DNA of 64,000 nt. Origin: Minisyncoccia bacterium (GTDB taxonomy: Bacteria > Patescibacteriota > Minisyncoccia > Phycocordibacterales > Phycocordibacteraceae). Location of the stretch: NCBI GenBank assembly GCA_041485695.1, contig JBGPJZ010000002.1, positions 65,499 to 129,498 on the forward strand, written 5' to 3'. This document shows, one piece after another, positions 27,549 to 32,560 of this stretch. The position numbers and the translations under genes were made by a program. Position 1 is the first letter of the stretch. Every line of letters starts with the position of its first letter. Below the pieces are notes generated by a model. It searched no databases, was not told the origin of the DNA, and saw only the letters and a list, made by a program, of their open reading frames with translations.

Positions 27549-27908
27549 TTATTTTGCCGGGGCTTTCGTTTGCCCCTCGGTGGTTGCTGCCTTTGCAGAT
27601 TGCGCCGCAGCGATTTCAGACTCCGCCTGCTTCATCTCGAGCTCCTTCTGCATCTTGCCGCCGTGGCGTTGGAACTTCTTCGTCGGCGAAAACTCGCCCA
27701 AACGATGTCCCACCATCTCTTCAGTGACGAGAACGTCCACGAAAGCCTTGCCATTGTGGACGCCGAAGGTGAACCCGACCATTTCAGGAGCTATCTGCGA
27801 GCGGCGCGCCCACGTCTTAATAGCCTCGGTAGACGAGGGCTTCTTGCCAGCGACCTTCTTCATGAGCTTTACGTCAACGAAGGGCCCTTTCTTAAGTGAG
27901 CGCGACAT
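27549..27908 (-). CDS. rpsS: 30S ribosomal protein S19 (C-terminal extension)
   Basis: [19 protein letters not shown]...[18 protein letters not shown], plus a ~35-aa Ala/Lys/Glu tail. Confidence 0.9.
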
Positions 27909-28123
27909 GAAAGTAATTAAAAATCCGCTTCCGCGGTCCCCTCTAACCTACAGGAAGCGCTGCCTGCCGTCAAATACCCTCCGATTTCAAATCGCCTCAT
28001 ATTTACTGGGCGATTTTAAAACCTTGACAGGTGGGCAAAATATTTCAATTCTCCTCACGGGCTTTTTCTTTATATAAAATCTGGTACTGTAGAGTGAGGA
28101 AATATTCATCAACGGGTGCGACG

Positions 28124-28552
28124 ATGGCTGTTCTTACCACTAGCGAGGCAGAGTTTGCCGCCGAAGAGCTCTTTGACTGGCTTATGCAGGAGGCATCCAG
28201 GCTTATCGAAGAGCATAAAAGGGCGGTGTGGAGAGATGACTTCCGCGCCAACTTCAGACCGATGGGAGCGAGCACGACATCATTAGCAAACGGTGTGGTC
28301 TCAGTCATCCACGTCCCTAAGTCACTCAAAGGTTTATTCCTCATCGAGCGCCGAGAGCGTTCCGGCACATGGTCGCCATTCGTTTCTTTCGACTTCTCGC
28401 AAGCCGATTGGGACCACCGGCCGCGTTGGCAAATCATCATTTGCTGGGAACATACGCCGGCGTTGCTGCGTCCCTCGTTTCGGGATGACCTGCGTGATCT
28501 TTGTTCGCGTATGTTCGGGTGCACGCAAATCATGTACCATGTCACCCGATAG
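28124..28552 (+). CDS. orphan hypothetical protein (142 aa) on the opposite strand, inside the rplB-rpsS junction
   Basis: MAVLTTSEAEFAAEELFDWLMQEASRLIEEHKRAVWRDDF... Balanced, non-repetitive composition. AT-rich upstream region (27909..28123). Followed by an intrinsic terminator. Confidence 0.45.
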   Translation: MAVLTTSEAEFAAEELFDWLMQEASRLIEEHKRAVWRDDFRANFRPMGASTTSLANGVVSVIHVPKSLKGLFLIERRERSGTWSPFVSFDFSQADWDHRPRWQIIICWEHTPALLRPSFRDDLRDLCSRMFGCTQIMYHVTR

Positions 28553-28559
28553 GCAAACG

Positions 28560-28602
28560 AAAGTCCCGGCAGATTACTGCCGGGACTTTTTGATTTCTAT
28601 TT
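28560..28602 (+). terminator. intrinsic terminator AGTCCCGGCAG-ATTA-CTGCCGGGACT + UUUUUGAUUUCUAUUUUUAUUU
   Basis: Perfect 11-bp stem plus a long U-tract on the plus strand, directly after the orphan ORF. Confidence 0.65.
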
Positions 28603-29445
28603 TTATTTATTCTTGCCGGTACGGCGGCGAGTGACGATGAAGACGTTGGAGTATTTTTTGGGCGTGCGGGTCTTCTGGCCCTTCCCTGTGGGCTTGCCCC
28701 ACATACTCTTCGCGCGGCGCAGGCCGCGGCCTTGCTTGCCCTCGCCGCCGCCGTGCGGGTGATCAACGGGGTTCATCGCCGAGCCGCGCACGGTCGGGCG
28801 GATGCCCATCCAGCGTGAGCGACCGGCCTTGCCGATAACGACGAGATTATATTCCTCATTCCCTACTGCGCCGACCGATGCCCAACACAGGTCGGAGACC
28901 TTGCGCACCTCGGTCGAGGGGAGCTTAAGGAGCGCGAAGCCCGCGTCGTGCGCCACAACTTCAGCATAATTGCCGGCTGAACGCGCGATGACGCCACCGG
29001 CGCCCGGCTTGAGTTCAATATTGTATACAAACGTACCGACAGGGAGCGCGCCGAGCGGCAAGCGGTTACCGAGCTTAACGGGTGCATCGGGAGAGACGGT
29101 GAACGAATCTCCTACTTTCATCCCTTTAGGGGCCGTGATGTAGCGACGCTCACCGTCTGCGTAGAGAGCGAGGGCGATGAATGCAGAACGAAATGGGTCG
29201 TACTCGATTGTCTCGACCTTCGCCGGGACATTCTTCTTATCGAAAATGAAATCGATGTCGCGCAAGCGGCGTTTATGACCGCCGCCCTGGTGGCGCGTCG
29301 TGATGCGGCCGAACGCATTGCGGCCTCCGCGGCGCTTCTTGGCACGCATAAGAGCCTTTGTTGGCTTATCGCCTGAAAGGAGCTCCTTGTAAGGGAGCGT
29401 GGTCATGAAGCGGCGGCTCTTGGTGGTTGGGCGATAGGATTTCAT
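28603..29445 (-). CDS. rplB: 50S ribosomal protein L2
   Basis: 280 aa, ...GRNAFGRITTRHQGGGHKR...GSAMNPVDHPHGGGEGK... Confidence 0.93.
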   Translation of the reverse strand: MKSYRPTTKSRRFMTTLPYKELLSGDKPTKALMRAKKRRGGRNAFGRITTRHQGGGHKRRLRDIDFIFDKKNVPAKVETIEYDPFRSAFIALALYADGERRYITAPKGMKVGDSFTVSPDAPVKLGNRLPLGALPVGTFVYNIELKPGAGGVIARSAGNYAEVVAHDAGFALLKLPSTEVRKVSDLCWASVGAVGNEEYNLVVIGKAGRSRWMGIRPTVRGSAMNPVDHPHGGGEGKQGRGLRRAKSMWGKPTGKGQKTRTPKKYSNVFIVTRRRTGKNK

Positions 29446-29742: not shown

Positions 29743-30516
29743 TTATTTTGCGCGCGCGGCAAGCGTCTTAAACGCCTCCTCCGGGTTCTCGATGATGAGG
29801 TAGCGATACGAGAGCAAGGAGAGCGGGTTAACGTTCCGGATGTCTTCAGTCGCGATATTGCCAAGATTACGGAAGCTCTTCACCGCGTTCGCCTCGTGCT
29901 TTGAAAGCGCAATCAAAACAGTATTCTTGTTCTTCTCGAGCAATTTTGCATCTGCGGCCTTACCGAGCGCGATGAGCGATGCAATCGCTCCCTTCGTCGA
30001 CGGCGCGCCAAAGGCAAACTGGTCGACCAAGATCACTTCGCCGTCTTTTGCCTTGCGTGAGAGCACGGAAACAAGGGCCTGTACCTTCATCTTGCGATTT
30101 ATCTTTTCGTGATAGTCGCGCTCAACTCTCGGCCCGAAGGTAACGCCGCCGTGGCGCCAAATCGGCGAACGTGTCGAACCGTGGCGCGCTTGGCCGGTGC
30201 CCTTCTGCTTCCATGGCTTACGGCCCCCGCCTGCGACCTCGGCGCGGTTCTTGGTGTGAGCGCGGTTCTGTCGCTTGTTCGCCGCAAGGGCGGTTGTTAC
30301 CTGGTGCACCATGTCTGCGCGCCACTTCGCGCCGAAAATTTTTGCTGGGAGCGTTACCGTTCCAACTTTCTTTCCGACCGCTGAAAAGACGGCGAGCTCT
30401 CGTACCTCACCGGCGGCAGGCGCAACTTTCGCAGCGCGAGGCTTCGCAACGCGCTTTACCGACGCCCTCTTCGGGCCGGTGTCCGCAGTCTTACGGTTGA
30501 TAGGTTTTGTAGCCAT
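29743..30516 (-). CDS. rplD: 50S ribosomal protein L4 (Lys/Ala-rich N-terminal extension)
   Basis: ...GGGRKPWKQKGTGQARHGSTRSPIWRHGGVTFGP... preceded by ~35 basic residues. Confidence 0.9.
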   Translation of the reverse strand: MATKPINRKTADTGPKRASVKRVAKPRAAKVAPAAGEVRELAVFSAVGKKVGTVTLPAKIFGAKWRADMVHQVTTALAANKRQNRAHTKNRAEVAGGGRKPWKQKGTGQARHGSTRSPIWRHGGVTFGPRVERDYHEKINRKMKVQALVSVLSRKAKDGEVILVDQFAFGAPSTKGAIASLIALGKAADAKLLEKNKNTVLIALSKHEANAVKSFRNLGNIATEDIRNVNPLSLLSYRYLIIENPEEAFKTLAARAK

Positions 30517-31353: not shown

Positions 31354-31938
31354 TCAGATGCCCTGACCCTGGAATACGACGAGGACCGTTCTCCCCAAGA
31401 GACGGAGATCGAGCGCGAAGCATGAGTGCTCGATATACCACAGGTCCCAATTACGGGTTCGGCGGTAGTTCCCTCGCACCGAGGCGGCTCTGCCTTTGAT
31501 CGCGGCCGGTCCCGTGATGCCCGGTCGCACAAAGTGACGCCGACTGAAGCCTGGCACCTCTTTGGCGAGTCGGGCAACGAGATCCACTGGCTGGGGTCGC
31601 GGGCCGACCACACTCATGTCTCCCACGAATACGTTCCAGAACTGGGGGAACTCGTCGATACGTCGCCGCCGAAGGAATTTCCCGAAGCGAGTGAGCCGTG
31701 GGTCGTCTTGTGACGAGATGAAATCCTGTGCGCGAGCTGACCCGGGCTGCATGGTACGGAACTTGTAGCAGCGGAATGTCTTTCCGCCCTTGCCAACCCG
31801 AAGCCCGGCATAGAACGCCCGCCCTTCAGGCGAGTCGATAACGACCATAAGCGCGATAAGCGCGTACAGCCAGCAAAAGCAAAGCAAGAACGTAGCCGAG
31901 ACGGCTACGTCGAAGATACGTTTAACCAAAGAGTACAT
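31354..31938 (-). CDS. monotopic phosphoglycosyl transferase (bacterial sugar transferase family, PglC/WbaP C-domain-like)
   Basis: Start at MYSLVKRIFDVAVS (SD GGAGGG); ...KFRTMQPG...DPRLTRFGKFLRRRRIDEFPQFWNVFVGDMSVVGPRPQ... is the sugar-transferase signature. Inserted between rpsJ and rplC. Confidence 0.8.
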   Translation of the reverse strand: MYSLVKRIFDVAVSATFLLCFCWLYALIALMVVIDSPEGRAFYAGLRVGKGGKTFRCYKFRTMQPGSARAQDFISSQDDPRLTRFGKFLRRRRIDEFPQFWNVFVGDMSVVGPRPQPVDLVARLAKEVPGFSRRHFVRPGITGPAAIKGRAASVRGNYRRTRNWDLWYIEHSCFALDLRLLGRTVLVVFQGQGI

Positions 31939-31975
31939 AGCAAATGCCCTCCGTTTGGACCTAAAACCTGCGTGG

Positions 31976-32004
31976 ACTTTACCGACAGGCCCTCGTATTG
32001 TCAA
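31976..32004 (-). promoter_or_regulatory. sigma70-like promoter for PGT gene: -35 TTGACA / 17 bp / -10 TAAAGT
   Basis: Minus-strand TTGACA (32004..31999) and TAAAGT (31981..31976), ~35 nt upstream of the PGT SD/ATG. Confidence 0.5.
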
Positions 32005-32011
32005 TAGTAAC

Positions 32012-32040
32012 GCAAAACCGGCCATACGGCCGGTTTTGCG
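32012..32040 (-). terminator. hairpin after rpsJ (CAAAACCGGCC-GUAU-GGCCGGUUUUG)
   Basis: 11-bp stem with U-rich 3' half, immediately downstream of the rpsJ stop. Probable terminator/attenuator separating rpsJ from the inserted gene. Confidence 0.4.
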
Positions 32041-32116
32041 CAAGCGAAGCGGAAATTCTTATGGAGACAGTAAGTATTTGTTTATCTCTGCCGGAAGAAG
32101 GACTTCCGCGAAACGT

Positions 32117-32560
32117 CTACGCCATTTTAACGTCAATCGTGACGCCGGAGGGGAGATTGAGATTCGTGAGCGCTTCGATTACTTTCGGCGAAGGGTTCAA
32201 GATATCAATCAAGCGTTTGTGAATGCGCATCTCGAACTGTTCGCGTGCGTCTTTGTGGACGAAGGTCGAACGGTTTACCGTCCAGCGCTTGATTTCGGTC
32301 GGCAAAGGCACTGGGCCGACGACCTTCGCGTCGAGGCGTGCGGCCGTGTCCATAATCTGCTTCACCGAGACATCGAGGATCTTGTGCTCGTATGCGCGAA
32401 CGCGAATACGGAGCTTGTGCTCGACGAGGGGTGCGGCGGGAGCGGCCGCGCTTTTTCTGGCCGGAGCCTTCGCGCGCGGCGCTCCGCCAGCCGGCGGACG
32501 AGCCGCGCTCTTCGCTGACGCTTTCTTCACCGTTCGTTTCGCTTTAACCGCCGTCGCCAT
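32117..32560 (-). CDS. rpsJ: 30S ribosomal protein S10 (Lys/Ala/Pro-rich N-terminal extension)
   Basis: ...HKLRIRVRAYEHKILDVSVKQIMDTA...GPVPLPTEIKRWTVNRSTFVHKDAREQFEMRIHKRLIDI..., preceded by ~45 aa AKRTVKKASAKSAARPPAGGAPRAKAPARK. Confidence 0.9.
   Translation of the reverse strand: MATAVKAKRTVKKASAKSAARPPAGGAPRAKAPARKSAAAPAAPLVEHKLRIRVRAYEHKILDVSVKQIMDTAARLDAKVVGPVPLPTEIKRWTVNRSTFVHKDAREQFEMRIHKRLIDILNPSPKVIEALTNLNLPSGVTIDVKMA

Follow-up and report, generated by a model that had tools for sequence, protein, structure and literature searches.

A probable fast-evolving accessory gene of a small, undescribed family in a proposed slot between rplB and rpsS of a Kaiserbacteria-like genome

Between the ribosomal protein genes rpsS and rplB, a 64,000-nucleotide stretch of a Minisyncoccia bacterium genome (assembly GCA_041485695.1, contig JBGPJZ010000002.1, positions 65,499 to 129,498; hereafter the window) carries on the opposite strand an open reading frame (ORF) of 142 codons, ORF142, which is a real, lineage-restricted protein-coding gene. 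We consider it likely that ORF142 is an independently transcribed, fast-evolving accessory gene that resides in a permissive slot between two transcription units. According to this reading the S10 cluster in the Kaiserbacteria-like lineage would not form a single operon but would be cut at the rplB-rpsS junction into two transcription units: the upstream unit would end with rplB and a terminator, the downstream unit would start with rpsS, preceded by a dedicated promoter and a hairpin leader, and the space between the units would be open to accessory genes. Plus-strand transcription of ORF142 would then be driven by an extended -10-type promoter (about 28075-28090) and would end at a hairpin (28559-28590) that scores as a terminator for the convergent rplB unit as well. 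The features of the locus, in window coordinates, are the following.

27549..27908, minus strand: rpsS, ribosomal protein S19, 119 amino acids (aa) (ORF list; tblastn, 70-88% identity in related loci)
27925..27936, minus strand: small GC hairpin CCGC GGAA GCGG with a U-rich tract behind it, part of the predicted rpsS 5' leader and immediately ahead of the start codon (alignment)
27945..27973, minus strand: predicted rpsS promoter with -35 TTGACG (27968-27973), 17-nt spacer and a TG directly abutting -10 TAGGTT (27945-27952)
27974..28033, no strand assigned: clade-conserved non-coding block of ~60 nt upstream of the rpsS promoter (alignment A2)
28034..28123, plus strand: ORF142-specific 5' region, absent from the related locus L085
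28124..28552, plus strand: ORF142, ATG start, 142 aa plus stop
28559..28590, no strand assigned: hairpin between the convergent ORF142 (plus) and rplB (minus) (terminator scan, both directions)
28603..29445, minus strand: rplB, ribosomal protein L2, 280 aa (ORF list; 74-91% identity in relatives)

The spacing between rpsS and rplB amounts to 694 bp (27909..28602), and other junctions of the S10 cluster in the window are tight, e.g. rplW-rplB and rpsS-rplV. ORF142 is oriented convergently with rplB and divergently from rpsS. This layout agrees with an earlier note on the same DNA, which had described a spacing of ~690 bp with a plus-strand ORF of 142 aa and a hairpin, and the 215 bp that it had called AT-rich upstream of the gene (27909-28123) indeed have a GC content of 43-48%, versus about 55-65% in the flanking genes. 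A longer, GTG-initiated version of ORF142 begins at 28031; the ATG at 28124 is favoured because the start methionines of the homologs align. Besides ORF142 the gap holds no convincing gene. A toxin-antitoxin or immunity pair, in which two small co-oriented genes lie side by side, was not found there, and a 166-aa minus-strand ORF that overlaps ORF142 has no family match. The window does stem from a metagenome-type assembly, but it is extremely improbable that the arrangement is an assembly artefact or a chimeric join, given that both flanks run co-linearly into the conserved block, rpsS and rplB, and that the same arrangement with a homologous ORF recurs in other assemblies (L081/L082 and L083).

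When 1.84 billion cluster representatives, standing for ~15 billion proteins, were searched in full with HMMER, four genuine full-length remote homologs of ORF142 emerged.

P0002: 156 aa, E=5.5e-14, the best of the homologs, without readable DNA
P0003: 150 aa, encoded in L081 and L082
P0005: 146 aa, encoded in L083
P0006: 158 aa, encoded in L084

The hit P0004, a 1041-aa, eukaryotic-looking repeat protein that matched only ORF142 residues 4-67 via summed repeats, was rejected as spurious and left out of the family alignment (A1). The identity in A1 is 26-32%, with W83, F91, A94, D95, D97, P100, C107, R124 and F131 invariant, which includes an ADWDxxP motif; D95-x-D97, C107 and R124 could constitute a small binding or catalytic site. 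A word-indexed search of 5.8 billion clusters returned ORF142 alone, and repeating it with the family profile added no further members. The AlphaFold2 model of ORF142, built from a shallow alignment, has a predicted local distance difference test score (pLDDT) of 81 and a predicted template modelling score (pTM) of 0.76, and its predicted topology is helix-strand-(disordered loop)-strand-strand-strand-helix-strand. Because there are full-length remote homologs and a model of this quality, ORF142 is more than a chance reading frame.

Neither sequence nor structure comparison linked ORF142 to a described family. Pfam, NCBIfam, PADLOC, PHROGs and the PDB sequence profile contained no match, and the best matches for any family member were noise (Imm50 E=0.14, MmeI_C 0.068 and the PADLOC model E1-E2 0.028). 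A fold match was defined as a low Foldseek E-value plus a TM-score (the template modelling score of a structural superposition) above about 0.5; Foldseek found nothing credible in the PDB (best E=0.17, TM about 0.3 or lower among the top-ranked hits), and in BFVD, where the best E-value was 0.055, no hit reached a TM of 0.5 relative to the query. The isoelectric point (pI) ranges from 5.5 to 6.6 across the five family proteins (6.5 for ORF142), and a direct reading of the ORF142 sequence reveals no hydrophobic N-terminal segment. ORF142 thus encodes a mildly acidic, soluble protein of alpha/beta architecture, whose family is very small and undescribed. The proposal of the earlier note that this may be a lineage-specific gene has held, and the homology search and structure prediction it had suggested for the 142-aa protein gave what is described here, that is, remote homologs and a confident model with no family or fold match.

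The junction itself was compared over 160 loci, found by scanning with the rplB protein of the window, that comprise 80 species-representative genomes, all of them Kaiserbacteria or other Paceibacterota of the Candidate Phyla Radiation (CPR), and 80 metagenome contigs; 127 of the 160 loci hold both rplB and rpsS. The gap between the two genes is shorter than 100 bp in 16 of these 127 junctions, 100-300 bp in 20, 300-800 bp in 6 and at least 800 bp in 85, with a median of 970 bp and a maximum of 3886 bp, and it measures at least 100 bp in 111/127. The expanded rplB-rpsS junction is therefore the norm of the lineage, and not, as the earlier note had it, an interruption of an otherwise tightly packed junction. 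The same note had asked whether related genomes keep the junction intact: short gaps do exist, as the 16 below 100 bp attest, but most are expanded. A literature search on this junction in CPR bacteria found nothing relevant.

The gaps contain a variety of genes. In 59 of the 127 a DUF3298 gene is present, often together with PdaC, in every case (59/59) on the opposite strand, and its product is N-terminally membrane-anchored. These DUF3298/PdaC (DUF4163) proteins share position and orientation with ORF142, which differs from them in being unrelated in sequence, in having no visible hydrophobic N-terminal anchor and in being about half the size. ORF142 as a DUF3298 relic was considered and rejected: there is no similarity, and a hidden Markov model (HMM) of the slot DUF3298 genes has no hit in the window. 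The 59 gaps with a DUF3298 gene include those of L008, L021, L031, L075 and L077. In the inspected loci the DUF3298 ATG is preceded, at a distance of 7-9 nt, by a TGnTAYACT element, a placement that suggests leaderless DUF3298 transcripts. Elsewhere the slot holds a 1176-aa protein with glucose/sorbosone dehydrogenase, LamG and PKD domains, an fn3 plus peptidoglycan-binding protein, a 2OG-Fe(II) oxygenase, an AAA_18 kinase, a HIT hydrolase, an S-adenosylmethionine (SAM)-dependent methyltransferase, a HopJ/DapD-like acyltransferase or coiled-coil proteins, and this non-DUF3298 cargo is found on either strand.

That rpsS opens a transcription unit of its own is suggested by a pattern common to the clade, i.e. 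TTGACn, a spacer of ~17 nt and a TG abutting TATCTT. A regular expression for this promoter matched in 63/74 loci, where 34-38 nt separate the end of the -10 from the ATG, and the promoter is kept even in gaps of 64-72 bp in total; the string TTGAC-N14-17-TGTAnnTT occurs once in the 64-kb window, where 0.01 occurrences are expected by chance. By its spacing and its fixed, conserved position the element qualifies as a predicted sigma-70-type promoter. About 8 nt past the -10 the clade has a 5-bp GC hairpin, then CTTTTCATTAC, and then the rpsS ATG. Over 100 distinct sequences 91% of the hairpin cells pair, with 10 compensatory cells, against 24-55% in slid controls, and the leader folds at -6 kcal/mol or lower in 70/74 loci; for the window alone the z-score of the hairpin is only -1.5. 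The predicted leader could act as a 5' stabiliser, an attenuator or a ribosomal-protein operator; among the ribosomal-protein leaders of Rfam none had a hit at gathering score in the 64-kb window. In this clade rpsS has no Shine-Dalgarno sequence.

At the other end of the slot, the hairpin between ORF142 and rplB has perfect arms of 13 nt (28560-28572 / 28577-28589) around a 4-nt loop, folds with -26.3 kcal/mol on the plus strand (z -6.9) and -25.5 kcal/mol on the minus strand (z -6.0), and is followed by TTTTTGAT on the plus strand and by TTTCGTTT on the minus strand. Having a GC-rich stem-loop plus a U-tract, it is a predicted intrinsic terminator and it scores as such in both directions; an Rfam scan of the gap gave sub-threshold hits only, which fell on this hairpin. 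What had previously been described as a perfect 11-bp-stem terminator is thus indeed strong and terminator-scoring, with a stem that is longer than stated. Bidirectional intrinsic terminators between convergent genes are known from published transcript-end mapping. The hairpin in the window resembles them: its GC-rich stem of 13 perfect base pairs is bordered by an A-rich tract on one side and a T-rich tract on the other, it lies between convergent stop codons, and its stability is similar on both strands. It differs in that the U-tract on the rplB side is interrupted and in being a terminator predicted from sequence. Of the 65 loci whose gap measures 100 bp or more, 49 have a terminator-like hairpin within 120 nt downstream of rplB; from shuffled sequences 0.44 would be expected. 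As a separate observation, the hairpin motif CCCCGTCACTCGTCCGCGAGTGTCTGGGG recurs just downstream of rplB in L023, L029, L047, L069 and L070, twice in the latter two; a small repeated element and an RNA motif are both conceivable.

Since a terminator after rplB and an rpsS promoter with leader are both predicted in the window, ribosomal read-through across the gap is probably not needed. The earlier statement that the ribosomal transcript must read through the hairpin in antisense is accordingly at odds with the own promoter of rpsS in 63/74 loci and with the terminator-like hairpin after rplB in 49/65. This bears directly on an alternative in which the ORF142 protein is secondary, and plus-strand transcription of the gene collides or pairs with rplB-to-rpsS read-through and thereby tunes the distal S10 genes. 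The convergent and divergent orientation of ORF142, the orientation bias that follows from the DUF3298 genes being opposite-strand in 59/59 and the interrupted U-tract TTTCGTTT, which makes some read-through conceivable, are all in line with such interference, but the rpsS promoter is conserved whatever the slot holds, including nothing at all in the gaps of 64-72 bp, terminator-like hairpins follow rplB across the clade, several relatives have same-strand cargo, and protein-level conservation with invariant residues and a confident fold would be needless for a pure RNA device. We regard this alternative as quite unlikely, and the antisense regulatory cassette that had been suggested earlier finds no positive support in the analysis. 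ORF142 probably neither disrupts nor regulates the ribosomal operon.

Part of the region upstream of ORF142 is shared across the clade and not specific to ORF142. Its 121 nt next to rpsS (27909..28029) have homology with the rpsS control region found throughout the clade, and the invariant AACCTTGACA at 28020-28029 contains the TTGACA (28024-28029) that had been noted as an element in front of ORF142. Read on the other strand, as TGTCAAsGTT, it is found in 57/127 junctions, nearly always 117-121 nt upstream of the rpsS ATG, and 20 of these 57 have gaps below 300 bp without room for a gene. Because the block is present in these 20 relatives, TTGACA is not specific to ORF142. As a -35 of ORF142 it was therefore rejected, being invariant in gene-less relatives and having no properly spaced -10 in the window; in many relatives it is followed by a TG+TATAAA-like element on the cargo strand, which the window does not have. 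Of the two elements noted earlier, TTGACA and TATAAAAT (28073-28080), both are thus present; they form no spaced promoter pair, and the former is part of the clade block. The block further contains an imperfect 12-nt inverted repeat (27985-27996 / 28009-28020). RNAalifold gives for the block a weak consensus of -4.9 kcal/mol that is equally compatible with direct DNA repeats, and the identity of the block between the window and L083 is 70-78%, versus 30-50% in the adjoining cargo. Possible roles of the conserved block are those of a transcription-factor site, of a second promoter or of an RNA element. The block also has an invariant TGTCAAGGTT and two imperfect repeats, which read GTTCTGGAA / GTTTTGGAAC in most relatives and TTTnAAATCG in the window.

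The ORF142 family is so far confined to this slot. P0003 and P0005 lie on the opposite strand between rpsS and rplB, the same as in the window (L081 and L082 being two records, from ENA and Logan, with the same protein P0003), and P0006 is encoded on a 1.2-kb contig (L084) that starts inside the conserved block adjacent to rpsS and has a coiled-coil gene as its 3' neighbour; for all three homologs with readable DNA, the gene is hence on the opposite strand, beside one and the same rpsS-side sequence. In the 160 related loci neither tblastn nor a search of six-frame ORFs with the family HMM found further members. The closest relative found, L085 (rplB 91% and rpsS 88% identical), has a gap of 169 bp with terminator, block, promoter and leader but without ORF142. 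L081, which has a family member, is more distant (rplB 66% identical). A variant of the block, GTTTTAAAA, is common to the window, L083, L084, L001, L085 and L002; with this same variant L001 and L085 have no gene in the gap, and in L002 an unrelated 83-aa ORF occupies a gap of 524 bp.

Nucleotide comparison of the window with L083 gives 70-85% identity in rpsS and the block, 30-50% in the cargo from ~28025 to 28594, and again 68% at the end of rplB. Cargo that is far more diverged than its flanks, together with a patchy distribution, may be accounted for by rapid evolution, by recurrent gain and loss, or by an exchange of alleles, for which recombination in the conserved ribosomal flanks would be the route. 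Gene-flux hotspots between conserved core genes of bacterial chromosomes are familiar from the comparative-genomics literature. The slot is similar to these hotspots in having variable, patchy cargo, more diverged than its flanks, between strongly conserved core genes; it differs in being located inside a ribosomal protein cluster, in usually holding one or two genes and in lacking an integrase, tRNA, transposase or flanking repeats. Around ORF142 we found no transposon-like flanking repeats beyond chance-looking AT-rich matches. A mobile-element origin of the gene was rejected, there being no terminal repeats and no target-site duplication and the viral contig scan being empty; no PHROG family or viral contig relative was found for the slot gene, and the slot is occupied by a single gene. 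Two further observations concern this region. A 16-nt direct repeat of 88% identity has one copy in the conserved block, ATTTCAAATCGCCTCA (27984-27999), and the other in the ORF142-specific 5' region, ATTTCAATTCTCCTCA (28042-28057), and CACGGGCTTTTTCT (28058-28071) is similar to the rplB terminator of L085 in its distal half. The repeat and the L085-like terminator piece may, on slender grounds, be a scar of the arrival of ORF142.

Candidate -10 elements for ORF142 itself are TAAAAT (28075-28080) and TGgTACTGT (28082-28090), the latter of which resembles the TGnTAYACT seen before the DUF3298 start codons, and extended -10-like elements also precede the homologous ORFs in L083 (TGtTATAAT) and L084 (TGaTAAAAT). 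Several points nonetheless weigh against an independently transcribed accessory gene. A strict sigma-70 scan found no -35/-10 pair for ORF142, which has no clear -35 and no Shine-Dalgarno sequence close to its start codon (the L081 and L083 homologs do have one), so that the gene could be poorly expressed. All promoters, transcription starts and terminators discussed here are predictions from sequence, and the inferred exchange by recombination draws only on a patchy distribution and on flanks that are better conserved than the cargo. The family, moreover, counts five members that are all metagenome singletons, and for the role of ORF142 our best guess is that of a niche-specific protein of the cytoplasm, dispensable and not a part of the ribosome.

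Some of these points would suit a non-functional or decaying passenger, that is, a gene recently acquired or degenerating, barely expressed and at present without a role, as would the extreme rarity of the family and its absence from the closest relative L085; the homologs, in addition, have both the Shine-Dalgarno sequence and the canonical promoter that the window copy lacks. Yet the frame is intact and has the same length as in homologs that share only 26-32% identity, the invariant core and the motif residues are kept, and the fold is predicted with confidence. Given that rpsS itself has no Shine-Dalgarno sequence in the clade, the lack of one in ORF142 does not imply poor translation. A passenger therefore seems an unlikely description of ORF142.

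A different role altogether would be that of a functional partner of the ribosomal locus, acting on the rpsS control block, on the leader or on ribosomes in a subset of Kaiserbacteria. Every member with readable DNA adjoins the rpsS control region, a conserved and unexplained block separates ORF142 from rpsS, and a divergent regulator gene beside its target operon is a classic arrangement. We nevertheless hold this to be very unlikely, as the family proteins are mildly acidic (pI 5.5-6.6) and yielded no match to a DNA- or RNA-binding domain, the control block is just as well conserved in relatives without ORF142, other lineages have functionally unrelated cargo in the slot, and the closest relative does without the gene. 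If true, it would make ORF142 a new kind of small protein and would explain the confinement of the family to a single slot. We thus retain the reading of ORF142 as an accessory gene, transcribed on its own, in a slot between two ribosomal transcription units.

The Escherichia coli S10 operon (rpsJ-rplC-rplD-rplW-rplB-rpsS-rplV-rpsC-rplP-rpmC-rpsQ) is a single unit that is controlled by L4 at the S10 leader. The window has the same ribosomal gene order, and its other junctions are tight; it differs in that the cluster is apparently cut at the rplB-rpsS junction and is also expanded between rpsJ and rplC, with accessory genes in both breaks, and in that no Rfam ribosomal leader matches in the window. 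The rpsJ-rplC junction of the window holds a same-strand Bac_transf sugar transferase gene (31354-32043, minus strand, E=1.4e-55), and the rpsJ-rplC distance in the relatives (L001-L080) ranges from 147 to 2100 nt; the S10 cluster is therefore broken at a second point. Several ribosomal proteins in the window have extensions rich in Ala, Lys and Pro, namely RpsJ (147 aa, 32117-32560, minus strand) in its N-terminal ~45 aa, RplD (257 aa, 29743-30516, minus strand) at its N-terminus and RpsS (119 aa) in its C-terminal tail. No Rfam family reached its gathering score anywhere in window positions 1-64000, so that neither tRNA nor rRNA genes nor genes of other known RNAs are detectable there.

Among the syntenic blocks of bacteria, ribosomal protein clusters are regarded as the most stable, and CPR phylogenomics uses them in this sense. 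Our analysis suggests that in one CPR lineage the S10 cluster is broken at fixed points, that rpsS has acquired its own promoter and leader, and that the break is used as a slot for accessory genes. The locus thereby offers a concrete case of operon fragmentation and points to a possible route of gene exchange, via ultra-conserved flanks, in organisms with few mobile elements; it also brings to attention a protein family without known relatives and a conserved non-coding control region. ORF142 itself is unlikely to change the view of ribosomal gene regulation, and it is the clade-wide fragmentation of the S10 cluster, together with the conserved control region of rpsS, that is the more notable outcome for the biology of this lineage.

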